A stretch of 62,426 nucleotides of DNA, filler included, from Dugesia japonica (Eukaryota): the NCBI GenBank assembly GCA_001938525.1. It is 6 parts of 6 records of this genome, joined end to end, with 100 filler letters (N's around TTAATTAATTAA, not from the genome) between each part and the next. Parts side by side here need not be neighbours in the genome. Positions count along the whole stretch, not along the records: positions 20,031 to 31,010 come from MQRL01202033.1; 5 more parts are not named here. One strand, 5' to 3'. Positions 5,173 through 62,366 of this stretch are shown here, one piece after another. Positions within the stretch are counted from its first letter, which is position 1. Every line of letters starts with the position of its first letter. Both the position numbers and the translations under genes were made by a program. Under the pieces are notes generated by a model. The model worked only from the letters and a program-made list of their open reading frames with translations. It ran no database searches and was not told the DNA's origin.

Positions 5173-6160
5173 TATTTTTTTATAATTTTTTAATATTTTT
5201 TATTATTTTTAATAATTTTTTGGTATAATTTTTAATAATGAATTTTTTTGGTATAATTTTTAATAATAAATTTTTTTGGTATCATTTTAATAAATTTTTT
5301 TGGTATAATTTTTAATACTGAATTTTTTAGGTATAATTTTTAATAATGAAATTTTTTGGTATAATTTTTAATAATTGTTTTTGGTATAATTTTTAATACT
5401 GAATTTTTTAGGTATAATTTTTAATAATGAATTTTTTTGGTATAATTTTTAATAATGAATTTNNNNNNNNNNNNNNNNNNNNNNNNNNNNNNNNNNNNNN
5501 NNNNNNNNNNNNNNNNNNNNNNNNNNNNNNNNNNNNNNNNNNNNNNNNNNNNNNNNNNNNNNNNNNNNNNNNNNNNNNNNNNNNNNNNNNNNNNNNNNNN
5601 NNNNNNNNNNNNNNNNNNNNNNNNNNNNNNNNNNNNNNNNNNNNNNNNNNNNNNNNNNNNNNNNNNNNNNNNNNNNNNNNNNNNNNNNNNNNNNNNNNNN
5701 NNNNNNNNNNNNNNNNNNNNNNNNNNNNNNNNNNNNNNNNNNNNNNNNNNNNNNNNNNNNNNNNNNNNNNNNNNNNNNNNNNNNNNNNNNNNNNNNNNNN
5801 NNNNNNNNNNNNNNNNNNNNNNNNNNNNNNNNNNNNNNNNNNNNNNNNNNNNNNNNNNNNNNNNNNNNNNNNNNNNNNNNNNNNNNNNNNNNNNNNNNNN
5901 NNNNNNNNNNNNNNNNNNNNNNNNNNNNNNNNNNNNNNNNNNNAATTTTTAATAATAAATTTTTTTGGTATCATTTTAATAAATTTTTTTGGTATAATTT
6001 TTAATACTGAATTTTTTGGTATAATTTTTAATACTGAATTTTTTTGGTATAATTTTTAATACTGAATTTTCTTGGTATAATTTTTAATAATGAATTTTTT
6101 TGGTATAATTTTTAATACTGAATTTTTTTGGTATAATTTTTAATAATGAATTTTTTGTTA
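5173..6160. repeat. Minisatellite, unit about 27-30 bp (TTTTTTGGTATAATTTTTAATAATGAA), collapsed across an N gap
   Basis: More than 15 visible units on both sides of the 5463-5943 gap. Confidence 0.9.
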
Positions 6161-6289
6161 TAAATAATAATAACGCTAAAATATAATATTTGAGTGGCTG
6201 CCAGCTTAGTAACAAGTGATCAACTGCTTTACATAAAGATAGTCATCTAGTATGTTTATGTCGAACCACTTCACGAAATTGTGATTCGT

Positions 6290-10120: not shown

Positions 10121-10220
10121 NNNNNNNNNNNNNNNNNNNNNNNNNNNNNNNNNNNNNNNNNNNNTTAATTAATTAANNNNNNNNNNNNNNNNNNNNNNNN
10201 NNNNNNNNNNNNNNNNNNNN
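10121..10220. other. Artificial contig linker N44-TTAATTAATTAA-N44 (also at 19931-20030, 31011-31110, 41087-41186 and 50942-51041)
   Basis: An identical 100-nt block with a six-frame stop 12-mer occurs five times. Confidence 0.97.
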
Positions 10221-14043: not shown

Positions 14044-15891
14044 TAAGAAAAAATCCAACCCTATGATCACCTTTATCCCACCGCATTAGATGAGGCCTTC
14101 AGTAAACTACATCAATTTTCATAAATATAAAGAGTTTAGATTTCTCGAGAAAACTTCCCGGGTAACAATACTGCTCGTTAAACATTAATCGACGCAATTC
14201 GATTATTTCTGATAGACAGATCATTGCAATTCTCTCAGTTGTTCTTTATTGAACCTTAATAACAGCATCTTGGCATTCACTGGTGGATTCGCTTTCCTCC
14301 GATCACTCTCATCGAACACGAATCAAAGAATTTCAGTTTTGTTTTGTGGATTTGCTTCTCTCCAATTATTCTCATTACCTCCATTAAAGTATCTCGGTAC
14401 CTCAGTCATCTCATACAAAGGGAGCACGATTCATCCCAGTCGGGGCACTCAACATCATTGGATTTTATATAATAAAATTTAAAAATTATGGCATTTGAAG
14501 ATGTACATATTTAAAATTTACTTTCGGGGTTTGTGTAGATAGCCTTGGATCGTTTCCACAATATTTTTGCTTGCTCCGATATAGGGTAATTCAATTAACT
14601 ATTTATTATCTTAACCAAGTTGAAGTAGGAAAAACTTTATTCAAATTTAATTTTCGCAAAAATAATAAAAATTAAGCAGATACAAAAGTGTTGTTTTCTC
14701 TTCGGGTAGCTGGTTTTAATTGAGAATGTTGAGACGACAAAACCGGCTCCCGATTAGCCAACTAATGATACATAACTTTGTGGGAATCCGATTTCCCGAT
14801 TGGTGAAGTTGGTGTGCATTCCTCTCTTCCTAATTTTTAACAATTTTGGTGCACACCAAATTTTTGGACTAAACTTTATTTTTCAGTCACCTCGCGTGAC
14901 CTCTGAATCCTTTCAGTTATCTCCATGCGACTTCCTTGTCTGGTTTAAGGTGAATCACGGATGCTGTTATTAAATTTGAACTTAATTCACCCTAACCAGA
15001 CAATGAATGGACCAAATTATATCTCTAATTAAGAGATAATTAAATAATATTAAACGCTGAAAAACGTTATTATAGTAATGAAATTGGGTCGCAGAGACCC
15101 TTTTAATAACTTATTGTATATTATTTTTATTATTTAATTTTTATTGTCTTTCTTTGCATCTACTTTTCATTTTTTACCACCGAAATTGGGTCTTCTACGC
15201 CCGATTTTCATTTTCTCGATAGTTTCAAAATCCGTCATAATGATTATAATAATAATAATTACATAATAATANNNNNNNNNNNNNNNNNNNNNNNNNNNNN
15301 NNNNNTGATAATATTTTCGGGTCCAGCTCATCAATTTTGTGTCTACTCTTCATTATTTTACACATTTTACTATTCTTTATTCCTTCGACAAAATTTGTGT
15401 TCTAGCCAAACAATTATAATTAAAATTATTATTCTTATTATTGTNNNNNNNNNNNNNNNNNNNNNNNNNNNNNNNNNNNNNNNNNNNNNNNNNNNNNNNN
15501 NNNNNNNNNNNNNNNNNNNNNNNNNNNNNNNNNNNNNNNNNNNNNNNNNNNNNNNNNNNNNNNNNNNNNNNNNNNNNNNNNNNNNNNNNNNNNNNNNNNN
15601 NNNNNNNNNNNNCTATAGTTAATTGAATTATTTTACCAATCCCTCTGATTTTTTTATTACTCGAATAATTTCTTAAATCGTGAATGTCTTCATATTTGAT
15701 TGAAATATCATTTAATCAATTCAAAATTCCTCAATTATACTAAAGTGTAAATTTCAGGAAGCATTGCATTAAATAAAATTATTATAAGCATAATTCATGA
15801 AAAGAGGACCACTAGAAATCAATATCAAATCCTTCAATTTACGAAAATTTCAGTATAAAACTAACTGTAAATTCACAACATTTAATAAATA

Positions 15892-17415
15892 ATGCATATC
15901 TTTTTATTGACAGTTTTACTGGTAATATATCAGTTAAATGAAATACAAACAATTGTGATGACAAACCAAATCAATGACGTTTTGAAATCCACCGTCAATA
16001 ACATTTACCAAAATAAAGATGTGAATAACATTGACAACTATAGAAATAATAATTCCAGCCTGAATAGTAATTCCGAAAATTTCAATTCCACAAACAATAA
16101 TAATTTCAAAAGTTCCAATTCAACAAACAATATTAATTCCAGAATGGTCAATTCAACAGACAATAATTATTCCAAAAATATAAATTCAACAGATAATCTT
16201 AATTCTAAAATAGTCAATCCAATTGACAATAATAATTCCAAAAGTGTAAATTTAACAGACAATATTAATTCCAAAATAGTCAATTCAAGAAGCAATATTG
16301 ATTTCAAAAGTTCCAATTCAACAGATAATCTTAATTCTAAAATAGTTAATTCAATTGATAATAATAATTCCAAAAGTTTAAATTTAACCAACAATATTAA
16401 TTCCAAAATTTACAATTCAACAGATAATATTAATTCCATAATGTTCAATTCAACAGACAATATATATTCCAAAAATATAAATTCAACAGGTAATAATAAT
16501 TCTAAAATAGTCAATTCAATTGAAAATAATAATTCAAAAAGTGTAAATTTAACAAACAATATTGATTCCAAAAGTTCTAATACAACAGATAATATTAAAT
16601 CTAAAATAGTCAATCCAATTGACAATAATAATTCCAAAAGTGTAAATTTAACAAACAATAATTATTCCAAAATAGTCAATTCAACAGATAATATTAATTC
16701 TAAAAAAGTCAATTCAATTGACAATAATAATTCCAAAAGTTCCAATTCAACAAACAATATTAATTCCAAAATTTACAATTCGACAGATAATATTAATTCC
16801 AGAATGGTCAATTCAACAGACAAGAATTATTCCAAAAATATAAATTCAACAGATAATCTTAATTCTAAAATAGTTAATTCAATTGATAATAATAATTCCA
16901 AAAGTGTAAATTTAACAAACAATATTGATTCCAAAAGTTCTAATACAACAGATAATATTAATTCTAATTCCAAAAATCCTTATTCCATGGACAATAATAA
17001 TACTAAAAACTTAAATTCTAAAGTCAAAGTTAATTGCACAAATTTCAATTTCAAAGACAATAAAACTTCTATTTCAAAACACGACGATAATTCTAAAAAT
17101 TTGAATTCGAAACACAAAAATAATTTCTTAAATAGCACTTCTAAGGATAAAGATAATTCCAAAGACAAAAATACCTCAAAAATCCTTAATTCTATCAACA
17201 ATATTATGACTAAAAATATCAAGTCTTTAAGCAATTATAATTCCAAAAATCTTAAATCCAAAGATAAAAAGAATTCCAAAAACCTAAATTCCAAGGGCAT
17301 TAATAATACTAAAATTTTCAAGTCTATAGTTAAAAATAGGTGTTTCAATTTCAAACACGACAATAATTACAAGTTCCTGTATTTGGCAATCAAATTGAAA
17401 TTAAACCAAAAATAA
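15892..17415 (+). CDS. Secreted Asn/Ser-rich tandem-repeat (mucin-like) glycoprotein, 507 aa, intronless
   Basis: Hydrophobic signal peptide (MHIFLLTVLLVIYQL); roughly 27 copies of an 11-aa unit (NSKIVNSTDNI-like) with many NxS/T sequons; basic C-terminus; TATAAAA about 37 nt upstream and AATAAA at the stop. The frame stays open for 1.5 kb in very AT-rich DNA. Confidence 0.75.
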   Translation: MHIFLLTVLLVIYQLNEIQTIVMTNQINDVLKSTVNNIYQNKDVNNIDNYRNNNSSLNSNSENFNSTNNNNFKSSNSTNNINSRMVNSTDNNYSKNINSTDNLNSKIVNPIDNNNSKSVNLTDNINSKIVNSRSNIDFKSSNSTDNLNSKIVNSIDNNNSKSLNLTNNINSKIYNSTDNINSIMFNSTDNIYSKNINSTGNNNSKIVNSIENNNSKSVNLTNNIDSKSSNTTDNIKSKIVNPIDNNNSKSVNLTNNNYSKIVNSTDNINSKKVNSIDNNNSKSSNSTNNINSKIYNSTDNINSRMVNSTDKNYSKNINSTDNLNSKIVNSIDNNNSKSVNLTNNIDSKSSNTTDNINSNSKNPYSMDNNNTKNLNSKVKVNCTNFNFKDNKTSISKHDDNSKNLNSKHKNNFLNSTSKDKDNSKDKNTSKILNSINNIMTKNIKSLSNYNSKNLKSKDKKNSKNLNSKGINNTKIFKSIVKNRCFNFKHDNNYKFLYLAIKLKLNQK

Positions 17416-20030: not shown

Positions 20031-20639
20031 ATATATATATATATATATTTATAAACTATATAGTCGATCTATTTAAAAAAATCAAAGATTTACTTTTACA
20101 AAATATGTAATTCAATACTAGATTTCTTTACAAAACTTTATTTTATACACGTCAAGATTTTTAACATTTTTGTTGTGGATTTCAGAAGGTCCAAACAATT
20201 TTCGGTTTTAAAAGAAAAGGTGATCAACTAAAATTTTGATCACTATTTATACAATTACGACATGTATGATTTTAATACAAAATTTTACAAGATAAATAAA
20301 TTTACATAAATATTTCCGTTGGTTACATAAAATATCATAAAAATTCCATTATTACAGATAAATTATATATAAAAATTTTCCATTAGTTATTTATTAATCG
20401 ATAATTTCAGTAATTTACAAATTATATATAATTGTTTGTTGATTATTCATGACTTCAATAAATAATTGAGTTGATTGATTGCTTGAATTGATTGATTGAC
20501 TGAGTTGGTTGATTGGGATGCTGGACGTTCTGATTGTTATTTGCTCATACTTGTTTTGTATATTACTTGTGTATATTGTGTATGTATGTGAATGTCAAAT
20601 AGCTTTAACTTTGTTAATTGATTTTAATTTTTTTCAACA
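20031..20639 (-). repeat. LTR-like repeat in minus orientation (inverted copy of 30244-31010), truncated at an (AT)n tract at the contig end
   Basis: 20031-20370 is the exact reverse complement of 30671-31010. 20467-20636 matches 30246-30416 with few substitutions. The minus strand begins TGTTGA at 20639. Confidence 0.85.
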
Positions 20640-20641
20640 TA

Positions 20642-20734
20642 ATGAAGAAAATATTATACAAACAGCATGGTGGCTTCCTCGCTGCATTACTACCTATTGC
20701 ATTGGCTGCATTAGGTCTAACAAATTTTGCATAG
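20642..20734 (+). pseudogene. C-terminal part of a Polinton/adintovirus pX-like virion peptide
   Basis: MKKILYKQHGGFLAALLPIALAALGLTNFA*: basic stretch, then a GG|F adenain-type cleavage site and a hydrophobic tail. Lies directly upstream of a Polinton integrase. Confidence 0.6.
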
Positions 20735-20821
20735 GCATTATATATATAATTTGATATAAGCAATGGAAAATTTAGAATAATTAACCTATAATTAATCTAC
20801 AATTTGCATCAAATTGTTGTA

Positions 20822-21618
20822 ATGGACAAAACCGAGATAATGTGGACAGATCCAAAAAATCCAGCAGGATTCAAAGGAGTGGGAAAGTTATGGAAAGCAA
20901 CACAAAATTCGAAAGAACAAGGCACAAAAGTGACTATTTGGTCAACTAGCGTATAGTCGAAACAAACCAATGTTCAAAAGATCTCCAACAAGAGCGTATA
21001 AAACATTTGGTATTGACGATTTATGACAAATAGATTTGATGGAAATGATACCTTATTAAAAAATTAATAGAGGTTACAAGTACATTTTAACATGTATCGA
21101 CGTGTTTAGCTGATTTTAATCGAATATTGAAAGATGCATTGAAAAAGTACTTTGTGCATACTGGAAATAAAACATGGATACATGTGTTACCAAAAATAAT
21201 TCATAGCTGTAATCATACAAGTCATAATGGATTAAATGGAGCCAGACCTGTAGATGTATCATCTGAAAATTCAAAGAAATTATGGTTATTGAAACAAAAA
21301 CCGAATGTAATTAAAAAACCAAAATATAAAGTTGGTGATCATTCACCATTCATCAAGAATTTTGATAGTAATTGGAGTGATGAAGTGTTTCAAATATCGA
21401 AAATCAATACCAAACAGAATCNNNNNATGTATGTGATTAAAGACTATGAAGATAATATCATTCAAGGAAAATTCTATGAACAAGAATTACAAGTAATTCC
21501 ACCACCAATAGTATTTAGAATAGAAAGGATTATAAAATCAAAGAAAACAAAAGATGATAAACAATTATATGTAAAATGGCATGGATACGAAAAACTTACT
21601 TGGATATCAACATCTTAA
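20822..21618 (+). pseudogene. Polinton/Maverick retroviral-like integrase with C-terminal chromodomain, internally deleted
   Basis: WTDPKNPAGFKGVGKLWK; DDL*QIDLMEM..NRGYKYILTCIDVFS joined directly to NRILKDAL..YF..TGNKTWIHVLPKII; KPKYKVGD; NWSDEVFQI; IQGKFYEQELQ; chromodomain FRIERIIK..LYVKWHGY..TWI. Confidence 0.85.
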
Positions 21619-21644
21619 ATAGTAAATTCAACAAAGAAGAAAAT

Positions 21645-21710
21645 ATGAGTAAAACGAATAATTTCTATACACTATTACCGAGTAATAGTTGTCCACTTAT
21701 TTATCCGGAG
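21645..21710 (+). pseudogene. N-terminal 22 codons of a Polinton minor capsid (penton) protein, fused in frame to the glycoprotein
   Basis: MSKTNNFYTLLPSNSCPLIYPE resembles the FYxTLPSNS..xxxPxN start of Polinton pentons and follows the integrase. Confidence 0.55.
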
Positions 21711-23365
21711 AGTATGCAGAGAGAATGTATTGTTAAATATTCGGAGGAAGTGTTCTATTGTGATAGTTCTCAGGTAGTACCGTTAGTACCAAGTTGGTCA
21801 CCAGAAGCAGTAAATATATCAGCTGAAGATATCGATAAAACGTTTGAAAACAAAGAAATAATAGTACGCGAAAAAGTTAAATTAGAAGCGAGAATTGGAG
21901 TGAAAGTAAGACAATCAAAAGATATAGTCGGATGGGAATCCGGAGGAGGATGGTGCAAATGAGGTAAATACTATCTATGGGGGAAAAAAGGAGTGATTTA
22001 GTAGTAAGACGGATGTATTATGTAGAATTGAGGAAATTTAAAGCTTCATTCGATTCAGTTACCGGAAAAATGATGACTCATCCTTTTTGCAATTTACAAA
22101 ATTTTAATTGTGATACCGGAAAATCTATGTTAACATACAAAGTAAACCCACATGAATGTGCCCTGACAAAACTGAAAACGTTAAAAATGTATTCCATCTC
22201 GGGAAAAAGATTCGCTGAGAACTTGGCAAAAGAAACAAGAGATCAAAAGAGAGAATTAACAGTAATCCAAGAGAAAGCAACTCCTACAATATTTGTAACG
22301 AATTCTTCTAAAGATCTTATGAGATTTATTGACAAAGGAGAAACAATCAAATGTGCAGTAGCAGTAAAGAAAACCAACTATAACGGATTATATATATCTA
22401 CTGAACTTATTAAAGCCTCTAAAGATCAAGTAGATAAATTAGACATCAAACTAGCTTCATATTTTAATAATAAACTTGATTTTGCATACCATAATTTAAT
22501 ATATCAAATGGAAAAATTATATGATGAAACAATATCAAGAGATTGTAAAGTGAATAGAGAATTACTGCGCACAAAAATGGCATTAGCTTCCACTAATCTA
22601 GATTTAATGACTCCACTATTGTTCGAGGAAACGGGAACTTTTAGGAGAATCATGGGTGAAGCATTATTAACCTTTAAATGTAAAATAGCAAAGGTTACGT
22701 TACCAGATCACCCAAAATGTACAAATGAATTGCCGGTAATACATAACAATAAAAAGGTTTTCTTATTACCTATGACACGAATTTTAACTGATGAAAATTA
22801 TAAACCAAAGGTAATCAACAAGTGTAGTAATGTTATAGATCCACTATACAAAATAAATGATGATATTTGGATCACAGCCTCAGATCGTAAAACAGCGAAA
22901 AAGCCTGCTATATTAGAAATGACGGAACTACAGAGAAAAATGATATTTGATAGACAAGACAATATGGAAAATGCTGGTATATATACTCAAGAAGATATAG
23001 AGAAAGCCAGAAAACATGTCTTGTTTCCTATAGAAAGAGAAAAGATAATATCAATTATGATTGACAGAATTAATAAAGGAAGCCAAGGAGATGATATTAA
23101 TTTTGAGTCGCTATTGCATGTAAATCACTACAAAAGAGCCATGCAAGGTTTTATTGATAAATTTTTAGGCAAAGCACAAGCAATCGGTGATATATTTTCG
23201 TTTTTTCTAATAATATACTATGTATCAATTTTATTAAAATTAGCCTGCCATCAATTAATATCATTAAAACAATTACATTCAGTATTTGGCGCTACACGAA
23301 AATTAGCAGCATGCATATGTACATTTATTGCAAAACATTTAATCATGCAAAAANNACCACGATAA
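21711..23365 (+). pseudogene. env: Class III (herpesvirus gB / chuvirus-like) envelope glycoprotein, N-terminally truncated
   Basis: Cys pattern and motifs recalled from chuvirus-type glycoproteins: YFNNKLDF, central helix LYDETISRDCKVNRELL, GEALLTFKC, KCTNELPV..LPMTRIL, CSNVIDPLYKI..W, GIYTQEDIE..HVLFPIER; C-terminal hydrophobic/TM segments. One stop and a frameshift near 21960. Confidence 0.8.
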
Positions 23366-23435
23366 AATCAGCAAACTAGAAAGACAAAATCAAACATACA
23401 CAATTGATCTATCGAACAGAGATGAGAATACATAA

Positions 23436-24257
23436 TTGAACAATTACAATAATAAACCTTATCAATCAGAAACCGATAAACTTAACGAATTAAAATCAAA
23501 CCTTGAAAATGAAAAAGTAATAAGATATCCTGCACCACAAAAATCACACAAGATATATGTAATAAATGGAGACACTCCTAGACCTACCATAATAATATCA
23601 ATACATGGATATAACATACCTTCATTAATAGACACTGAAGAAGCATGCTCAATAATTAAAGAGGTATTTCTCAACAAAAAACCACAAGAGAATCTCGATA
23701 CGAGACTGTCAGAGGAATTAAAATCATTCACGGGTCACAAATTACCTATAAAAGGGATAATAGACTGCAATATTACTATAGAAAATGAAAATATACAACA
23801 ATCATTCCGAGTTGTAGATCAAGGGGTACAAGATTGCATTTTGGGAATGGATTTATTATCAAAATTGACAGGATACGTTATAGATTTACAAAATAATAAA
23901 TTATCAAAATCAGCGCCCGTAAATAATGAAAAAGCAAATAACGATTTATATCTGAAGTCCAACGCAAAAATAGAATATTCATGCAAATGTATAATGCCTG
24001 TAAAATTAGGGTTCCGTAGTGAAAATATTTATTTTTTCGAACCAAATAATCAATTAGAGAAAAAATTCAATATATCAATAGTACCCAGATGTTTTGTACC
24101 AAATGAGGGAAACATGCCCATAAGAATTGCTAATTATAATAATCAAGACGTTAATCTTCTTCCAGGTATGAAATTAGGAAACCTTTATGTAAAAAACGAG
24201 GATTGTGAAATAAACAAAATTACAATTAATGATAGTAAAAGAAACACTAATCTATGA
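23436..24257 (+). pseudogene. Retroviral-type aspartic protease plus dUTPase-like linker domain
   Basis: SLIDTEEACSII (DTG decayed to DTE), LKSFTGHKLPIKG, DCILGMDLL; then IRIANYNNQDVNLLPGMKLG. Confidence 0.8.
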
Positions 24258-25760
24258 CAAAATCATACCTAAGTAAACAAAGTTTTACGATAAAACCAAA
24301 ATAACCAATAGTAATCTAACAGCGCGCCAACGACAAAAATTACAAGCAGTAATAGATAAATTTGAAGATGTTTAAGCAAAACATGAATTTCATATGGATG
24401 AAGCAGATTTTATACAACATGCTATTGACACAGGTAATGCTAAACCAATTAAACAAAGGCCATATGTGGTACCATATAAATTGAGAGAAGAAGTTGAGCG
24501 ACAAAGAAAAGAATTAAAAGACAATGGAATTATAGTACAAAGCTTCTCTCCATGGGCATCACCAGTAGTACCAGTAAAGAAAAAAGATGGAGAAATCAGA
24601 ATGTGTGTAGACTATAGAAAATTAAATGAAGTCACCAAGAAAGATACTCACCCTTTCCCGAAAATACAGGAGCAATTCAATAAATTAAGTAAAGCATTAT
24701 GGTTTGCAATATTCGATGTCAACATAGGCTTTTATGGTCTGAAAGTATTGTTACAAGATAGATAAAAAACTGCATTCGTAACAAAAGACGGTTTATACGA
24801 ATTTACAAGAATGCCATTTGGTTTAATGAACGCAACAGCTTCTTTCCAGAGATTAATGAACACAGTATTGATAGATGTGGAACATGTAATAGTGTATATG
24901 GACGATATTCTGATCGCATCAGAATCATTTGAGCAACATTTGATAAACAAAGAAAACATGATGTCCAGATTACAAAAGGCAATTATAAAACTGAAACCAA
25001 CAAAATGTAAATGGGCGGAGGAACAGGTATTATTTTTAGGTCATATTGTCTCATCAAAGGTTTTGCAACCAAATCCAGAGAAGAAAGACGCAGTAAAAAA
25101 ATTTCCAATACCAAAAGCAGTACAACAGCTACAAAGTTATAACGGATTAGTTGGTTACTATCGTCGATTTATAAAAGATTTTGCCAAAATATCTGCTCCA
25201 TTAGTAGAATTAACAAAAGGATTAAAAACAAAAGGAGAAAGTAAGAATGTGATGATCACCGAAAAAATTGATGAAAGCTCATCAAAATTATAAAAATTAT
25301 GGAGAAATAATCAACAGAAAGCCTTCGAAATGTTAAAAGAAAAATTAATAACCGCATCGTTATTGAGATATCCAGATTTTGGCAAACCATTTATAATCAT
25401 GACAGATGCAAGTGGATATGTCGTTGGAGCAGTTCTCGGACAAGAGGAAGAGAAAAATAAAGATTATGTAATCGCATACGCAAGTAAAATGTTAAAAGGA
25501 GCAGAAACTAGATACTCGACAATTGAAAAGGAGTGCTATGCAATAATATACGGATTGAAACAATTTCGACCATTCATTTATGGAACAGAAGTCCCTATAT
25601 GAACGGATAATAACCCACTTGAAGGCATATGGAAAAAGAAGGATACATCCAGCTGGATACTAAAATGAGCTATGAAAATCCAAGATATGAATATAAAAAT
25701 TAAATATAAACCTGGAAGAGCTAACATAATGCTGATGCATTATCGAGAATTCCTAATATA
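24258..25760 (+). pseudogene. pol: Ty3/gypsy reverse transcriptase and RNase H
   Basis: SPWASPVVPV, RMCVDYRKLN, MPFGLMNA, YMDDIL, FLGHIV, GYYRRFI; RH TDASGYVVGAVL, EKECYAI, ADALSR. Several stops and frameshifts. Confidence 0.95.
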
Positions 25761-25775
25761 AAAGAAGTAGAAACA

Positions 25776-27050
25776 ATGGAACTAATGGCTATAATAACCG
25801 AAGGTATAAACGATAAANCTTTCTCAGATGAACAAAGAAAGGATAAAATCATCAAATCAATACGAAATAATCTCAATGAAAATCCAAAATATAAAATATA
25901 CAAGGATCTACTTGTGTATGATAATATGGAAAACTATTTATGGGTTGTCCCTGATCCATTAAAGCAGAAGTTACTTCTCCAATATCACGATGGTGCTCTT
26001 GGTGGGCATTTGTCAAGTAGAAAAAAGCATCTAGAATTTTACAAAAATATTATTGGCAAAACTTAAAGTAAGATGTAAAACAGTGGTGTAAAACTTGTTC
26101 AATATGCGCAACCAGAAAGAACACTGGAACCAAAACAAAAGTACCACTTCATCCAATGCCAGTACCAAGTTCACCAATTCAAATATGTGCTATGGATTTC
26201 TTAAGCAAACTACTCACTACAATAAAAGGCAATAAACATATTTGGGTATTTAGCCATTACTTTACAAAATGGGCTGAAGCATTCCCCACCAAAGATGAAT
26301 TAGCCGAAACAGTTGCAAAACTATTAGTGGAAAAGATTGTTTTTAAATACGGAGCACCCAAAAAATTACTATCAGACAGAGATAAAAATTTCTTAAGTAA
26401 AAAAGTTAAGAGTCAACGAAATGTTTAATATTCAAAAAATAAATACTTCAGCGTATCACCCACAGACAGACGGTCTTGTGGAAAGATTTAATAGTATACT
26501 ATGCAACAGACTATCAGTATTTGTCAACAAAAATCAAAATGATTGGGATTTATTTATCAAACCAGCACTATTTGCTCACAATACAACAGAAAACGAAGCA
26601 ACCGGATATTCACCATTCTACTTAATGTACCTGAGAGAAAATCACAATTCGGTAGACATTACATTTGAGCCTATTGTATCACAATACATGGACAATCCGG
26701 ATTATGTCACGAAAATGCAGGAAGGATTACAGAAAGTGTATAAACAAGCTGGGTTGAGAGTAAAATTCAAACAAGAACAATACAAAGATTATTATGACAA
26801 AAATGCGAAACCACGCCAATTTAAAGTTGGAGATAAAGTGCGAATAAAGACTCCAAATTCTAAAAAGGTTCAACAAAAAAACTGGCCAGACCATTCAAAG
26901 GACCTTTTGAAGTAGTGAAAGTAATGGATACAAACCTACAAGTGATAAAGAACAAAAATGATGATCTTTCAGGAGTTGCAGTCAACAAGTGCAAATTAGC
27001 AGAAACAGAACCAATAACTTCAAAATCACACAAATATAATCTCAGATCAC
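25776..27050 (+). pseudogene. pol: Ty3/gypsy integrase
   Basis: HHCC (YHDGALGGHL..CKTCSIC), AMDF, LLSD, AYHPQTDGLVERFN, GPF motif and terminal YNLRS. Confidence 0.93.
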
Positions 27051-27061
27051 AATCACAAAAT

Positions 27062-28856
27062 TCATTACTGATCATGTCACTAATATTATTATCGATTATA
27101 ACAAGTTGTTCAGCAGATTTCACGTATTTATCACCTAGAAAAAACTCTTGGCCTACGGTAGAAATAGGTATATATTCACATAAATTTACATTCGAAATCC
27201 CTTCACATAAGACTTTCTATGGACCTACATTATCAGGAGAAAATAGAATTATTACAAAATAAAACCCTAATACTAACAGTTATATTGACAGACAGTGTTA
27301 ATGACATAAAAATAGAAATTCAAAATGTCCCAGATGTATTAGGAGTTGAGTTTATATATTACGACAGATTACCAATACCCTTTCTCGCATTTACAAAAAT
27401 AAGAGGTCACTCTAGAATAGACAATACCTCTTTGTTAAATAATATATCATTCTTGAAATATTCCATCTTGGCACCAGAAGATATAGACTCCATGTCAATG
27501 TTTGTAGATATTAAAACCTTACCAGATCACTACATGCTCACAGAAATAATCGAGATCAAAATTCAGAACTTCAGAGGGGAAACATTATTGAACAAAAGAG
27601 TATGCCCCAGAGAGCGAATCAAACACAACTATAAAGACACAATTGGATACGACGAGAAATTAATCCTCGGTAAGGAAGATGCATACCCAATTATCATACA
27701 AACCGGACATATGCTATATGGAAAAATATTGATTGGCTATGACTTGGGAAAGAAATTGGCCAGTCTTCATATGGATCAAAGACATATTATTGAATATAGA
27801 GATCTTGATGAAGAAAAATGGCATAAGAAACTAGTATCGAAACCTAATACAGCCAAACACCGGATAAGTACAATTTTCGAAGCAATATTGAAACCCATAA
27901 AATATTAACCTCGAATAAGGGATTTAATTTGGTCAATGAACCATACAATAACATTCACTACAAACAACAGAATTGAATGGATACGACAGGCGTATATCTA
28001 CCTTAAAGAAACGAATCAATGGGACGACACTATAAAACCAACTAAGGACTACAATTTAGATCCAAAAATGGATGTCTTAGAACCTATAACTTCTATACCA
28101 CCACGAGAAGAAATATTCCCTATGGCAGTCTATTGGCCCATAATATTAAAAGAAATTGACAAAAGTAAAATAGATATTGTCAAATCTGGGGAATCAACTC
28201 AAGCTAATATAAACCATCCAATTATAAATAAAAAGACTAAGCGATTAAATTATAATAGCGTTGATCTTGATGACGAATCTGAAACTGAAGACAATGTGTC
28301 ATCACCAAAAATATGGAAAGAGAATACTGAACCCAACACGCAGATAGAAGAAGCGGCACGCAATATCATACAAATAGATAGTGATTCTGATTTAGATGAT
28401 AGTGATGATGAATTAAATGAAAATAAAGATTCAAATTCAGACAATAATTATGAGAACCAAAGCGAAACTGAAGGACCAATATACAGAGAACAAACAAAAG
28501 AGCCACTACAGGAATTAACAACGGAGGAAGTCAGATTCTGTAAACAATATGTACCATATTATACAGATGATGAATCCAGTGAGGATGAACTTGGATTTGA
28601 CCCAGATATCGAAATACTAGATGTTAGAGAATCATCGATTGATATGTCAGACCTTGTGTACATTAACAAAAAAATGGATACCACTGTCACTATGAAAGAC
28701 ATGGCCAATGATGAGGCATATGTGACATTTGGTACTAAGAAAATAAAAATAAAACGAGTCAATGGACAATTTAAGTTTATAGTAGAAAATACCATGTATG
28801 ATAGCATGGCCTTAGAGGAAGAGGGACAAGAACTCTCGATATCAATTACAAAATGA
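27062..28856 (+). pseudogene. Post-integrase extension: signal peptide, unknown domain, DEDDh (REX4/ISG20-like) exonuclease-like domain, acidic tail
   Basis: LLIMSLILLSIITSCSA|DF is in frame with the IN end. From 27498: MFVDIK..IIEIKIQNFRGETLLNKRVCPRERI..GYDEKLI..LYGKILIGYDL..YRDL. ORFs 27219 and 27936 share a frame across one TAA. D/E-rich region at about 28260-28620. Confidence 0.6.
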
Positions 28857-28962
28857 AATTATAAAATACATAGTTGTATATTTGTGTATATATGTGTGTG
28901 TGTGTAAATGTATACAACTTTCATATCCTTTACTAGCTTCATTAATTATTTATTTTTAGAAA

Positions 28963-30200
28963 ATGGATCCCGAATCAACAGCTAGGAAAATTCATCTACA
29001 CAATAACTGTAAAATAATTTTACATGAAAAACACCGCGCCCTGAAATACCCATTAAATTACGGTTAAGATGACGTAGCCAAAATTATTTATTACCTATCC
29101 GAAGACGCTGAATGCCCATTTGTTACGAATACCCAGAACTGCCACGAATTTTGGAATGTGGCCATTATTTCTGTCTTTATTATATATTAAAAGTCTTTCT
29201 TCTTTTCAACTTACGTCTAGTCCCCTGCCCAATCTGTCGTTCCTGAAAAATAGATGCTTTTCATCCTAAACGAGTTTCTTTCCTAAACATGTCACCCTTT
29301 AAAGTTGGACAAAAACTCAATATGTTGTTAACCTTCAAAGACCCCTTCAACAACTGCACAAGAATTGCTCATCGCCTACCCTTATATTATCAAGAGGATA
29401 TTCCTGAATTTAGCGACTTAGTTGGTAAATAAAATAATGTTACCATTCAAAGAGATGTCATTTCCATCAGCCAGATACAGAATGACCTCTGTACAGCCAG
29501 AGTGACCAATTAAACGAAAAGAGACAAAGACAACATGCAGCTCCACTTAAATAGTGAATTAAGAAGATTCAATAACCTAGTCAAAATTCAAGATCGATTT
29601 GAGTTCGTCAGGAAATTCCTTAACAGTAAAAACGTTTCACAATTCAACCTGTTTCATCACCGAAATATATTGTCACCTCGGTTATACTAACAAACTGGTC
29701 GGTACCATAACCTTTTTATCAATAAGGAACAACAGGAAAAAATACTCCAATTACCAATATTAAAATTGCCCTATGAACTCATAGTAGAAGTAAAGTCCAT
29801 AGAAACAGATATTGTAAAAACTTGTCATGCAGTTTTTTACACTGGACAAAGAATTACCTCTATTACTATCGATATCATTAGTTCTAAGGTACTTGGAGGT
29901 CTACCTAAATACGTGCCCTTTTTCAAACATTATGGAGACATTTTAAAGAAAGAAAAAAGAGAAAAACAAGAATTGAAAAGAATAGCGGACAACTGTAAAA
30001 ATTTGATAGGATAGAACCAAAGATTTACAACCTCACCAGACAAAGACAACCACTTGAAATATTTTCAAAACCTACATTCCCATACCCTACATTACCAAAT
30101 ATTGAGGAAGAATTTAACCCGTGTATTTTCAACGAACCCTGTGCGAATACAATTCCTTCTGGCTTACATGATATGGAATGCTCATTCTTAACCTTGTTTC
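28963..30200 (+). pseudogene. RNF10/MAG2-like C3HC4 RING E3 ubiquitin ligase carried by the retroelement
   Basis: With a 1-nt deletion at about 29117: HLHNNCKIIL..EDAECPICYEYPELPRILECGHYFCLYYILK..VPCPICRS..KVGQKLNMLL..LY*QTGRYHNLFIN..LPYELIVEVKSIE..YGDILKKEKREKQE. Collinear with RNF10 blocks outside the RING. Confidence 0.7.
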
Positions 30201-30208
30201 TTAAACAA

Positions 30209-30239
30209 GCTGCGGGTGCATCTTTTTTCGAAGGGGGAA
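30209..30239 (+). promoter_or_regulatory. Polypurine tract with preceding GC hairpin and T-run
   Basis: GCTGCGGGTGCATC-TTTTTT-CGAAGGGGGAA lies immediately before the LTR-like repeat. Confidence 0.75.
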
Positions 30240-30243
30240 CATT

Positions 30244-31010
30244 TTTTGAGGAAAATTAAAATCAATTAACAAAATTAAAGCTATTTGACATTCACATACA
30301 TACACAATATACACAAGTAATATAAAAAACAAGTATGAGNAAATAACAATCAGAACGTCCAGCATCCCAATCAACCAACTCAATCAATCAATCAATTCAA
30401 GCAATCAATCAACTCAAAATCAATAAACTTTATCTGATCCAATTTTACCGATTGAAGCTCTATTTGATTTGATTTGATTTTAACCAAATTGACTTTGTTA
30501 AATTGATTTATCATAAAATATGTTATTTGTAAAAAAAATTTTTTATATTATTTCATTTGTAGAATTTTATATTTAATTAAGAATATTTTATTTATAAAAT
30601 TGCATATCGCATAAACAATTATTTATTGAAGTCATGAATAATTATTTACCTAAATTATCAACAAACAATTATATATAATTTATCTGTAATAATGGAATTT
30701 TTATGATATTTTATGTAACCAACGGAAATATTTATGTAAATTTATTTATCTTGTAAAATTTTGTATTAAAATCATACATGTCGTAATTGTATAAATAGTG
30801 ATCAAAATTTTAGTTGATCACCTTTTCTTTTAAAACCGAAAATTGTTTGGACCTTCTGAAATCCACAACAAAAATGTTAAAAATCTTGACGTGTATAAAA
30901 TAAAGTTTTGTAAAGAAATCTAGTATTGAATTACATATTTTGTAAAAGTAAATCTTTGATTTTTTTAAATAGATCGACTATATAGTTTATAAATATATAT
31001 ATATATATAT
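30244..31010 (+). repeat. 3' LTR (partial; the contig breaks at an (AT)n tract)
   Basis: Follows the PPT. Start TTTTGAGG aligns with TGTTGAAA of the second copy. Contains (TCAA)n and a GTGATCAA..TTGATCAC hairpin. Confidence 0.75.
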
Positions 31011-52337: not shown

Positions 52338-54450
52338 CAGAGGTCGCCAAAGTAGTCTATATAGACCCCTCAGGGGTCTATTTAATAAAAGTAGGGATCG
52401 ATCTGAGCCAAGAGGTTGAATGGGGGTCGAAGAAAACCCATTTTTAATACGCAATTCAAACATACCTAACTGCATATGTAAAATTTGTGAATGCTTTTAT
52501 AATTGACTTAATATCAGTTTCTTGTGAGAAAATAAATTAATAAACGTATATTTATTCGAGTGAATAAAGTATTTACATACCAGCGCGCAGCGGTGCCAAC
52601 TCGGCACTTCTGTCTTATGAGTCATACACATATGCGCGTTGCTCCAAATGTCACGAGCGTTGATGTAAGAAGGTAAGCATTAAGAATATTGATTAGTATA
52701 GTATACAAACTTATTTTTTACTTATTTATAGAACCCTAATTAAAAAATGGCAGCTTCAGTTTCTAAAAAGAATTTCGGTAATATTCATTGGATTATTTGA
52801 AATTTGGATTTATTTGTTCATCGATAAATGAAACAGTTCTTATATGTCTTCTATGCGAAACAAAACATTTGGAAACGAGTATATGAAACCGTCAAAAATG
52901 AAAGATCATCTTAAAATGAAAGATCATCATCATCATTTTTATCATCACTCAGATAAAAATAAATATAGAACTTGAATTTTTCAAAAAACTTAAAGAACTA
53001 TAAAACGTTTTATGAAGCAGTCTACTGAAGGAGGATTAATAGATTCGTACAAGATTTCGCTTACGGTAGCAAAGAAAGGAAAACCACACACTCTCGCTGA
53101 AGAAATTGTTATACCTGCAATTTAAGACTACATTGAGGATGTAATGACAAAAGACTCCGTTAATGTTTTCAAGTCCTTGCCATTAAGCGCAAATTCTGTT
53201 AAACGGCGTATTGACGAAATCGCAGAAGAAATATAAAATACAGTAGTTTCCGAGCTAAAAAATTGAAAGTTCTCTATTCAACTTGATGAATCTGTTTTTG
53301 GCGTTTCAACTATTTTTATGGTGTACGTGAGATATTTCAGTAAAATAAAAAGACAAGTCATTGATGAACTTTTATTTGCTAAATATCTTGAAACTGATAG
53401 AAAAGGAGTAACCATTTTTAGATGTTTACAATAATATTTAAATAAATATGATATTCCGCTTCAAAATATAATAGCAGTAGCCACAGATGGCGCATCTGCT
53501 ATGGTAGGGCGTTACCGAGGTTTTGCTACATTTCTCAAAATAAAATTGCCCGGTATACGTACTATTTATTGTGTGTTGCATAGAAACAACTTAGTGGCAA
53601 AATATCTGAGTCCAGAGTTACATAAAGCTTGTATTAAGTGTATCAATCAAATTAAAGCCCAACCTCTTAAATCAAGATTGTTTTCCAAACTCTGTGAGGA
53701 AAACGACAAGGTATTTAACCAATTACTTCTGCACACCGAAGTTATATGGTTGTCTAGACGTGTATGCTTGCCATTGCTTGTTAAGTTATTTGACTTCACG
53801 ATAGAATTTCTCAGTGAAATAAATCCTGTTCTGTGTGATGAACTCCAAAACAATAAAAACCATATTTTATATTTAGCGGAATTATTTGAAAAATTAAATG
53901 CCGTCCAAACGAAGCTGTAAGAAAAAGATGTAACAATAATTCAAGCTTGGACAATACTGTTAGGATTCCAAGTAAAATTAAATTTATTTAGATCTTTATT
54001 GCTATGTAAGGATTATCAGTATTTTTCAAACCTGCGACATTTAGAAATAAAAGAAGAAGACTTAAATATATATACAAGTCATCTTGAAAAATTAAGAGAC
54101 CATTTTAAACTGCGATTTGTTGATTTGGAAAACATTTACATCCCTGAATGGATTATTGCATCATTTTCCGCTCAAATTGAAAACCTAGATACCAACCTGC
54201 AAGATGCGTTTGCTGATTTAATATAATGCAAAAATCTGTAAAACTTTTCGAAATACCTGAGCCATTTATGCTGGCATTTCCAAGTTCCTATACGGTTAAA
54301 GCCGGTTTCAGTCACGTAAATTCAATCTTAAATAAGTTCAGAAATAAATTAAATCTGGAGTTTCGAGGAGATTTAAGATTAAAATTGACAAATTTTGAAC
54401 CCAATATAGTGAACTTTGCAAAGAAACACCAGCCACACCCATCTCATTGA
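52338..54450 (+). mobile_element. hAT Buster/Charlie-type transposon, decayed; transposase about 52747-54450
   Basis: TIR CAGAGGTCGCCAAAGT; ATAGACCCC..GGGGTCTAT palindrome; KPHTLAEE, LPLSANSVKRRI, SIQLDES, ATDGASAMVG, CVLH, LLHTEVIWLSR, FPSSY, RGDLRLKL and HPSH*. Right TIR not seen. Confidence 0.9.
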
Positions 54451-56974: not shown

Positions 56975-58156
56975 TCATAAACAATTTGAAGTATTATTCT
57001 GTAAGTTGCCTTGAATGAATTCTTGTAAGGAGATATCATATAATAATGCATTTCTTTGTAAAACTTCAACACAAGGTCCTAATAAACGCTCAAAACTAGA
57101 TCTCTCCAATATCCCAATCACAGATTTTTCCAAACAGACGACAGTTGCAGCTCGTGGTCGATTTGTCATCAATGAAAGCTCGCCAAAATATTGACCCTTT
57201 TCTAAAATAACTATTTGTTTTCTTGTATTTCCACTATCCACATATACTCCAACTTTCCCTCTTTCAATGAAATACATATGCTTTCCAACATCTCCTTGAT
57301 GGATAATGATAGAATCTTTTTCATATGTTTTCATATGAATAGCATCTGCAATATTTATCTTTTCATCATTAGTTAATGAATCAAAAAGAGGTACTGATGA
57401 TATAAAATTGACATATGTTAATCTTTTTTCATGTGCCTTTAGTATCACAATACTTTTAAACGTTTTCCTATTCATATACCAAAGGATTCCAGCAGTTCTT
57501 GCAATAACTGTTGCTGATCTTGGTGAATTATATAATAAAGAAAGTTCACCGAAAGATCCTTGATTGTTATACGTATTGATATGTTCTAAAGCATTGTATT
57601 TATTTTTAATGTAAACATCAAATATTCCCGATTGAATTACATAGAAATGATCACCAGGATCTCCTTGTTGAATAATAATATCATCAGCTTTCACTATTAA
57701 GATATTCATAGCGATAATTACATCATGAATTTCGTCATCAGCAAGTGTTTTGAAAATCGTTATTTTTGAAATAAGCCGTTTTAAGGTCTCTATTTCTGAT
57801 GACGTTTTAACATTTGTTTGGACAATTTCTCCGGAATTGTATATCTGGAAATCGTACGGATTCCAGCTTTCTGAAGAGATAGCGAATCGGCGTCTATTTG
57901 TTTTTGGCTCAAATTCAATTTCTTCTGAACTATCAATGCTCGATCTATTTTTCGAAATTGAAGTGTCCAGTTTTCTATCAAAAGCCACTGATTTTGAATT
58001 ATCTGTATTTCGATTTTCAAATAAATTATGGAAATAATTTGCCGAAAATTCTAATAGATTTGTCGGTTTGTTTTTTAATGCGTCCAATGTAAAATCTATT
58101 AATAATTCTCTAATTTCTAAATTTAATGGAAGATTTTTACAGTCCACAAATGACAT
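56975..58156 (-). CDS. PRKAR2: cAMP-dependent protein kinase regulatory subunit (RII-like), intronless, 393 aa from ATG 58156
   Basis: RIIa-type D/D domain (ELLIDFTLDALKNKPTNLLEFSANYF), inhibitor site RRFAISSE, two CNB domains (QGDPGDHFYVI..FGELSLLYNSPRSATV; YFGELSLMTNRPRAATV) and FERLLGPC. Confidence 0.92.
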   Translation of the reverse strand: MSFVDCKNLPLNLEIRELLIDFTLDALKNKPTNLLEFSANYFHNLFENRNTDNSKSVAFDRKLDTSISKNRSSIDSSEEIEFEPKTNRRRFAISSESWNPYDFQIYNSGEIVQTNVKTSSEIETLKRLISKITIFKTLADDEIHDVIIAMNILIVKADDIIIQQGDPGDHFYVIQSGIFDVYIKNKYNALEHINTYNNQGSFGELSLLYNSPRSATVIARTAGILWYMNRKTFKSIVILKAHEKRLTYVNFISSVPLFDSLTNDEKINIADAIHMKTYEKDSIIIHQGDVGKHMYFIERGKVGVYVDSGNTRKQIVILEKGQYFGELSLMTNRPRAATVVCLEKSVIGILERSSFERLLGPCVEVLQRNALLYDISLQEFIQGNLQNNTSNCL

Positions 58157-60149: not shown

Positions 60150-62366
60150 AAAACTTATGGAGAGTTGTGAGATTTTGAATTTAACTAACATGGCGATAAA
60201 CGCATCATTGGATTTGCTAAAAGAATTTTCCAAATTGGGGATGATGTCAAAATTTTATCATGAAGACAACAAAATTTTGTGATCTATACAAAATAAAGAA
60301 ATGCTTTAGAAATTTGGTTGCAAAGAGCTAATAATGAATAGTTTCAATGACATAAAGATTAAACATAAGATAAAATCCAGAAAAATAGAAAAAGTAGAAG
60401 ACGCATTTGAAGCAATAAAAGAGTGGGAATACATAAAAGACNAAGTAAAAACTGAAGAAATAAATGTAGTTCGTAACTACAGAGATGCAGTTTGCAGAAG
60501 TCCAGAACAAAGAAATTTCAACACGAGTCGTAATGAAGGAATACAACAGAACAGAAAAAATGAAAGACGAGAAATCTCGTGTTGGACCTGTAACAAAATA
60601 AGTCGTGTAAGCAGAAATTGTCAAGAACAACACTTAAGAAGAGACTGTATCAAAGTTAGTTGCTCAAGATGCAACAAGAAAGGTCACCACACATAGAACT
60701 GTTACACAAATATGAACAGACAGCATCTGATGAATGGATTCAAACGACAAACAAATTTGCTGCGTTTAATCAAATGAAGCTATCGTTTGCGTTTGATATG
60801 TTAATGAGACGAGATGCGAAAGAATTATGGGTGGAGAAAAAATGGAAAATGCAAAGAAGGTATTATTTTGACGAACGAGGTCTGCGAAAAATGGTTTTGT
60901 GAATCCTTTGTAATTTCAGAGACACTGGTAGATAAAATAACACTTTTGTCAAAGATCAAACAAAACCCAACTGAAAGTATCGTAATTTTGAGTTAAGAGT
61001 AAGAAAAATAGTAAACAAATTTCTTGCGAGTTAATAAACTCTAGATGAAATTGCAACAATATTTCTAATTAATGGTGTAAAAAGCGAAAAATTAAAAGAA
61101 TCCTTTGTTCTTCAACCAGAACTTACTGATATTCAAAGACGAGAATTAGCTTACATATATTCTGTTAATGTGGTAAAGTGACGAAAGATGATTATCAGTC
61201 AAAGTTTTCAAAAATGCATCCACGAATGAATACTCTTAACGATCCAAGTCAAGAAATTGGCTAATTGTTTTCAAAGAGAATCAGTATTATGAAAGTGAAA
61301 TTCAGACCCAAAGACGCGTCCAAAACAATAGTTTTTTTCAATACTCTATGAACAATATATATAGCCAATAAGCTTTATTGTAAAGCCAAAGGAAAGAATC
61401 CTCCGTGCGAAGAAGTTTTTGCACAGGGAGTATATTTCTGCTGTGGAGATACAAGACATAGAAGAATGAATTGTTCATTAAAAGATAAATGTTTAATATG
61501 TGGAAAAGAAGGTCATAATTTTCGAGATTGCGCATTAATTCGAATAAGAAATTCTTCATTTCCAGATATTATGTATTGCAGAAAAATATGTTATCTTACA
61601 ATGGTGAACAAATTGAGTATATACACGATGTTTCTTTTGACGATGATGATAAAAAAACGATAAATAACAGAGAAAATACTCCATGATGAAAGATTAATGT
61701 TTGATGGTAAGATGTTTTTAGAAGAGATATGGGAAAGAATGGAGTTTAATGCGTTACAATGAATATGATATTGAAATGTTGTGGGATTCAGGAGCAGCAA
61801 TATTAGTCATAAGTGCGGATGTGTTGAGAAGAATTGGATAACTTAATCTATCGACGTCACACATGGTTCTAGCAGGAGTGTTTTCAAAAAAAGGAGAAAA
61901 ATATATCGGAAAAACTAAACTGAAGTTACAATGGTATTGAAAGCTAAAAGATAAAGAATTAGTAATTGTTAAAAATATTTTTTCAAAGTTTATCAGAGGT
62001 ATTGATATGAAAATCACTGAAGTTGATTTTATTAACTCAAACGATAGAAAGTTATTTACCGATAATACAGAAAAAGGGAAAAATGACTTTAATACTTCAT
62101 ATAATGTAAGTGACGAAGTAATAGAAATGATAGAAACTTACAAAGATATATTCATGACATCAAAATTTGATCTTGGATATACAAAACTGATGCAACATCA
62201 TATTGAAACGACAGGACCTCCAATAATGATAAACTCGAGAAGACAGACAATGCACTTGGAAAATAAAATAGATGAATTGTTAGACAATCTTAGAAAATCA
62301 AATATTACAAGAAGTTGCAGAAGTCCGTGGAATTCCCCATTGGTAATTGTACCAGTTAGAAAATAG
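60150..62366 (+). mobile_element. Nested or decayed Ty3/gypsy fragments: two gag remnants, protease and RT start
   Basis: CWTCNK..C and CSRCNKKGH; CGDTRHRRMNC and CLICGKEGHNFRDC; LWDSGAA protease at about 61780; HHIETTGPPI..SPWNSPLVIV. Confidence 0.8.

Follow-up and report, generated by a model that had tools for sequence, protein, structure and literature searches.

The window analysed here is a stretch of Dugesia japonica DNA of 62,426 nucleotides (filler included), in which scaffolds of about 10 kb each are joined by artificial linkers (N44-TTAATTAATTAA-N44) at 10121, 19931, 31011, 41087, and 50942. Scaffolds on the two sides of a linker are unrelated, and adjacency across it is not biological. 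The retroelement described below lies inside a single 11-kb scaffold (20031-31010), which carries long inverted repeats at both edges, and comprises the following features:

20031..20637, no strand: left terminal inverted repeat, ending in (TA)n; against the right arm, the outer 342 nt are identical and the inner 172 nt are 97% alike, with one indel
20642..21709, + strand: Maverick/Polinton-like left end (presumed), with a short hydrophobic peptide, a broken integrase with chromodomain, and the first codons of the next ORF
21710..23365, + strand: 5'-truncated env of mononegavirus/gB type with a membrane anchor, upstream of the protease (PF24664, E 1.3e-60)
23436..27061, + strand: broken pol, with protease, spacer, RT, RNase H, and integrase with a GPF tail ending in YNLRS (Pfam RVP-type, RVT_1, RT_RNaseH_2, Integrase_H2C2, and rve)
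27062..27115, + strand: internal signal-peptide-like segment in the integrase-tail frame (from hydropathy), with putative cleavage after 27115
27116..27230, + strand: first 38 codons of a putative signal-peptide-led protein (high sibling depth to about 27214; analogy with metagenome loci L002, L008, and L011)
27226..27231, no strand: break, where left-hand sibling contigs stop matching (27228-27230) and right-hand ones begin (27226-27231)
27231..27500, + strand: remainder of the family's N-terminal domain (from alignment to relatives)
27501..28025, + strand: predicted ISG20/REX4-like DEDDh fold (from family, profile, and model), with a private stop at 27906
28026..28856, + strand: linker, acidic low-complexity tail, and short C-terminal segment, closed by the stop at 28854-28856
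29112..30014, + strand: further broken ORFs, likely cargo, the first being a C3HC4 RING finger (PF00097, E 1.5e-4, above cut-off)
30246..31010, no strand: right terminal inverted repeat (from comparison with the left arm)

Other scaffolds of the window carry unrelated features. A host gene without introns, encoding a regulatory subunit of type II PKA (PF02197, PF00027), lies on the minus strand at 56975-58156, and a broken ORF at 53435-54226, which had no match in the Pfam scan, resembles hAT/ZBED-type transposases. Two tandem arrays are present, one of 33-bp units (15889-17415, open for 508 codons) and one of 28-bp units (5180-6181). Finally, the zinc-knuckle match of the ORF at 60310-60696 is very weak (E 4.2), and this ORF may be a piece of gag from another retroelement.

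The env gene and the pol gene are both broken by many stops and frameshifts. Pfam places the pol domains in the order PR-RT-RH-IN, as in GAG-ENV-POL gB-type Ty3/gypsy elements, with a spacer of about 120 residues between PR and RT (in which Pfam detects no dUTPase), and the integrase tail is frameshifted relative to the integrase core near 26864. The element begins inside env at about 21710, and gag and LTRs are absent from this copy: no flanking direct repeat was found among the 20 of 26 repeat families listed, the copy being truncated at both ends. Over 22001-22213, 47 of 71 env residues are identical to the ENV of Smed_errantivirus_3 and 33 of 71 to that of Smed_errantivirus_1 (counted by eye against supplement 2 of PMC13524379, for these two rows and leaving out the other four). 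We thus likely deal with a decayed and truncated copy of an enveloped planarian Ty3/gypsy element. An env located before the protease has been published for the planarian Burro/GYPSM1 elements (PMC6431247), as well as for nematode, bryozoan, and flatworm errantiviruses with the GAG-ENV-POL order, which do not form one clade (PMC13524379). Downstream of the exonuclease gene, the RING finger ORF and two or three more broken ORFs (29112-30014) show a contig depth resembling that of the exonuclease region, and are likely to be additional accessory cargo.

This 8.3-kb retroelement piece sits between terminal inverted repeats of Maverick-like appearance. We tentatively take the segment 20642-21709 to be a Maverick/Polinton end on the basis of its motifs. 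Its chromodomain match in Pfam is sub-threshold (PF00385, E 8e-5), with no rve match in the same segment; contig depth is very high there, and loose contig ends occur at 21706-21709. Long terminal inverted repeats, by which Mavericks/Polintons are recognised, are present on the scaffold flanks, and Pfam matched neither protein-primed polymerase B nor capsid genes among the 18 ORFs scanned, the interior being taken up by the retroelement. The piece between the repeats is therefore either a non-autonomous DNA element with retroviral cargo, or a misassembly. If both the junction at 27230 and the Maverick-like ends had arisen by misassembly of repeats, the observed gene order would never have existed as one molecule. 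In keeping with this, the repeats form the very ends of the scaffold, their outer 342 nt are identical in spite of a badly decayed interior, and no contig among those listed spans the stretch. However, the inner repeat arms have diverged from each other, and the order env, pol, membrane protein, exonuclease agrees with independent loci (see below), so that we find this scenario rather improbable.

At the end of pol, YNLRS (27035) runs in frame into the segment SLLIMSLILLSIITSCSA|D (27062-27118). Its best 11-residue hydropathy is 3.05 and small residues occupy positions -3 and -1, making for a plausible cleavage site; the signal peptide that the first-pass annotation had placed immediately after YNLRS is retained as a signal-peptide-like segment. 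Differences between this copy and its siblings at 27070, 27106, and 27169 all fall on third codon positions of the signal-peptide frame and are silent. By analogy with the metagenome loci, the codons that follow (27116-27230) are likely to be the stub of a second surface protein whose remainder has been lost. The stub shows no similarity to the membrane protein of L011.

Farther on, the same annotation had read a REX4/ISG20 motif pattern about 145 residues after the start of the signal peptide, and FVDIK (27501), IQNFRGETLLNKRVCP, LYGKILIGYDL, YRDL (27795), and AYIYLKETNQW (27990) are all present, the first of them 146 codons past 27062. Taken alone, the domain of this copy matches nothing in Pfam or NCBIfam, and word-seeded homologue searches, scans of viral contigs, and a first metagenome scan also returned no match. 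A full phmmer scan, on the other hand, retrieved 23 unnamed proteins (E 5e-10 to 4e-4), 14 of which match PF00929. In full-length relatives, about 170-240 residues of N-terminal domain (313 in one of them) are followed by the nuclease fold and a long low-complexity tail; relative to most of them, this copy lacks about 80-150 N-terminal residues. Its own tail contains 26% Asp+Glu between 28251 and 28853, and so deserves the name of acidic tail it had been given. Ubiquitin matches were rejected, being sums of 3-bit matches over tandem copies in a segment that can be aligned with the N-terminal domain of the family.

Against a profile of 19 relatives from which it was left out, this copy scores 73.4 bits, whereas the best of 500 shuffled sequences reaches 7.5 bits; the resemblance to the family exceeds chance. 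The profile of the family alignment in turn matches ISG20L2 (3e-26), ISG20 (2e-15), and SDN1 (2e-12). An alignment-based model (pLDDT 77.8) submitted to Foldseek returned ISG20L2 (1e-6, TM 0.73 by target), ISG20 (0.77), and SDN1 as its first three matches; as the alignment guides the model, profile and Foldseek results are not independent. Folding from the single sequence gave a pLDDT of 32, and a search of viral folds gave generic DEDDh matches alone. Profile, model, and Foldseek thus agree in predicting a DnaQ-like fold, as is characteristic of the REX4/ISG20 group, and the DEDDh assignment proposed earlier stands. The domain belongs to an accessory gene family of ISG20-like type, itself probably unreported.

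The genomic context of relatives is informative about how this gene is organized. Twelve metagenome loci carry the exonuclease gene, and in all 12 of them an in-frame stop lies 0-24 codons ahead of its first Met; two assemblies and a single subgroup (alignment A3) account for the whole set. A Met start is found in 22 of the 23 relatives and none of the 23 has a hydrophobic N-terminus (maximum hydropathy 1.87, versus 3.05 in the signal-peptide segment). Upstream DNA is available for three distinct elements only (L001/L002, L008, and L011), none of which includes RT or integrase. In L002, a retropepsin (E 6e-5) is followed by two hydrophobic segments and a stop, with the exonuclease gene about 260 nt further; in L008 and L011, an upstream ORF with signal-like and membrane-anchor-like segments also ends in a stop. 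Taken together, the stand-alone loci, the absence of hydrophobic starts, and the upstream membrane proteins suggest that the signal peptide most likely leads a surface protein, the nuclease being encoded by a gene of its own. A point against this reading is that the membrane protein of L002 comes after the protease, not after an integrase.

The first-pass annotation had also seen the nuclease as occupying an env slot vacated after the integrase. Env is indeed not at the 3' end, as it was found upstream of the protease, but the slot behind the integrase is more likely that of a membrane protein, as in L002, L008, and L011. The upstream ORFs of these loci (L002 3-1679, L008 1-1245, and L011 1-1512) show a signal peptide, a Cys-rich ectodomain, a Thr-rich stalk, and a membrane anchor. 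The membrane protein of L011 has no sequence match in the PDB. A retroviral protease directly before a membrane protein, as seen in these metagenome relatives, is an unusual gene order. Small related ORFs starting with MSPIMPD are located just before the exonuclease gene (L010 588-1166; L011 1773-2204 and 2669-3058); they look coiled-coil-like by eye and are duplicated in L011.

Integrase and nuclease had initially been read as one continuous frame. The signal-peptide frame (26864-27262) is in fact closed by a stop at 27260-27262, and the exonuclease part occupies another frame, from 27168 to 27908 and, after one more stop, from 27909 to 28856. Where the frame changes, comparison with sibling copies, i.e. 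contigs from two DNA runs, also reveals a break, at 27230|27231. Past 27230, 12 and 6 contigs (in the two runs) continue in other sequence; one sibling record extends 631 letters beyond this point and does not return among the matches listed. Right-hand contigs join at 27226-27231 after 125, 229, or 281 unmatched letters (record positions 126, 230, and 282), and none of the contig joints listed for the two runs crosses 27230|27231. As a point against a simple deletion, depth drops 20- to 40-fold after the break, so that its two sides could derive from different subfamilies. As sibling contigs leave and join at this very point, a deletion most likely brought the two genes together, and the apparent integrase-nuclease fusion is most likely a deletion scar of this one copy.

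In a true fusion, POL would continue through the signal peptide, and perhaps through an ectodomain and a membrane anchor, as far as the nuclease fold, making the latter a membrane-tethered RNA-binding domain. The signal peptide does lie in the integrase frame, and Burro elements are described as shifting domains between polyprotein and accessory ORFs (PMC6431247). Furthermore, the 21 codons of the exonuclease frame that precede the break can be aligned with the YIH motif of the family in a near-right register (+3.6 bits), which is a weak hint against a break located exactly at 27230|27231. Against these points stand the different frames and the stop at 27260, the interruption of sibling contigs at the junction, the stand-alone organization of the gene in 12 of 12 loci, and the Met start of nearly all relatives. 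We consequently abandon both the read-through of the integrase into the nuclease domain and the view of the nuclease fold as a continuation of the signal peptide, and consider a true fusion very unlikely.

The suspicion that most acidic catalytic residues are replaced proved correct: the five catalytic positions of this copy read D (27504), K (27510), K (27753), F (27954), and R (27969), so that four of the five are lost. Exo I (D-x-E) keeps its Asp and has Lys at the second position, the acidic residue of Exo II is replaced by Lys, and Exo III (H-x4-D) shows Phe and Arg (alignment A1). Non-catalytic motifs of the family (G, PR, D, G, and RD) are kept. Checked against the family, as had been suggested, the full set D-E-[D/E]-H-D is conserved in 17 of the 23 relatives, two others being truncated after the first three residues, which they keep, and four being degenerate (P0003, P0018, P0020, and P0024, each with different replacements). 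In a tree of 24 rows, degenerate members need two changes, but support is poor and long branches meet, which is compatible with one or several losses; this copy itself sits on a long branch (4.0) and has no supported place.

Two levels of decay can be told apart in the sibling copies. Of the sibling depth, 822 of 831 and 295 of 295 units lack the stop at 27906, which hence represents private decay. At the position of His, this copy and nearly all its siblings disagree, but the siblings do not encode His either; at Exo II a diverged sibling (one contig in X1, two in X4) carries the same non-acidic residue, Lys, amid silent changes. Siblings thus lack at least two catalytic residues, and the loss likely predates this copy. 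For the Glu of Exo I and the Asp of Exo III, no sibling difference was found among the 40 of 145 rows listed. The 35 differences listed past the break are distributed 12:11:12 over codon positions, and this copy decays neutrally.

This neutral decay, along with the intact catalytic set of most relatives (and its first three residues in the two truncated ones), would fit an exonuclease which is active in live copies and whose residues were lost only as this copy and its closest siblings decayed. Such an explanation is difficult to reconcile with siblings devoid of His, at least one of which has the same Exo II substitution surrounded by silent changes, or with the replacement of four catalytic positions in a domain that kept its non-catalytic motifs, and we give it a low probability. 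RNA data comprise 19 and 1 reads in about a quarter of two runs, mostly from the signal-peptide part and none of them 95% alike, and show neither expression of this copy nor its silence. Judging from the sequence, the gene product is likely a pseudo-nuclease accessory protein.

Among known systems, Smed_errantivirus_3 and other GAG-ENV-POL errantiviruses of Platyhelminthes with HSV/gB-type env (PMC13524379) share a gB/mononegavirus-type env before pol, whereas the present copy is broken and has neither gag nor LTRs; the main text of that paper mentions no exonuclease, accessory, or fibronectin. Nematode NERV elements, as cited therein, have the same gene order (gag-env-pro-pol), but the host here is a planarian. 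The giant planarian Burro/GYPSM1 elements have env in frame between gag and pol with homology to mononegaviral glycoproteins, and an extra, dUTPase-like domain between PR and RT, where our element has its spacer. They resemble it in RING and other cargo, but neither an exonuclease nor a post-integrase signal peptide is described in section 7 of PMC6431247. Their BIR, BCL2, MATH, and ankyrin cargo would fall outside the part preserved in this copy.

The closest precedent for the nuclease is found in bdelloid rotifers, where ORF3 of Juno and Vesta LTR elements and of Terminons encodes an accessory protein of 3'-exonuclease fold downstream of pol (PMC5408684). A DEED-like acidic motif is shared with most of the present family. 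Rotifer ORF3 is nevertheless an RNase D-like DEDDy protein with intact residues, while the present family is of ISG20/REX4-like DEDDh (His) type, with an extra N-terminal domain and an acidic tail, and the present lineage is degenerate. The first-pass annotation had cited DEDDy ORFs in LTR elements of both bdelloid rotifers and nematodes; the rotifer half holds, but the available part of PMC5408684 has no nematode case, none was found elsewhere, and the domain here is DEDDh-like. ISG20, ISG20L2, and SDN1 (PDB 1wlj, 7yw5, and 5z9x) are alike in fold and motif spacing, but identity is only 12-14%, four of five catalytic residues are replaced, a 12-residue insertion precedes Exo III, and the context is that of a mobile element. 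Literature searches, including the available parts of PMC13524379 and PMC8532177, returned no description of an ISG20-like or disarmed exonuclease in LTR elements, although Grohme 2018, Sacco 2022, or Repbase may describe the gene. Exonuclease cargo in LTR elements is thus already known (intact and DEDDy, in rotifers), and the disarmed ISG20-like branch of planarians is probably new.

Overall, we consider it probable that the locus is a decayed copy of an enveloped Ty3/gypsy element in which a likely deletion at 27230|27231 put the signal-peptide stub ending POL beside what is likely a separate gene, with a predicted ISG20-like fold and four of five catalytic residues lost. In intact copies, the internal signal peptide in the tail of gag-env-pol would send a second surface protein into the ER, and the protease would free the integrase from the polyprotein. 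The downstream gene would be translated alone into a cytosolic or nuclear protein made of the N-terminal domain, the nuclease fold, and the acidic disordered tail. In most relatives this accessory protein may act as a 3'-5' exoribonuclease trimming RNA 3' ends, and in the present lineage it may bind such ends without cutting them.

What such binding would serve can be approached by analogy. Arenaviruses dampen innate sensing by means of a DEDD nuclease, their nucleoprotein (PMC7968707), and Maelstrom is an inactive DEDD fold that binds RNA (PMC5408684); the likeness to both is a functional analogy, with an Atlas feature match of 0.92 for the arenavirus nucleoprotein. On these grounds we prefer, tentatively, a role in which the pseudo-nuclease would shield the RNA of the element from host decay or from piRNA/dsRNA surveillance. 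LTR elements of planarians are strong piRNA targets (PMC8532177).

More speculatively still, an undescribed ISG20-like family might be carried by enveloped retroelements in flatworms and in other small invertebrates, and several lineages would have turned it into a dead, RNA-binding decoy against host defence, encoded behind a second surface protein that is cleaved out of POL. Silencing suppressors encoded by retrotransposons are hardly known in animals. As its members include active-looking as well as disarmed proteins, such a family would offer a natural pair for asking whether RNA is trimmed or shielded, and these elements would appear to be organized like complex viruses, with a fusogen, a second surface protein, and accessory genes.
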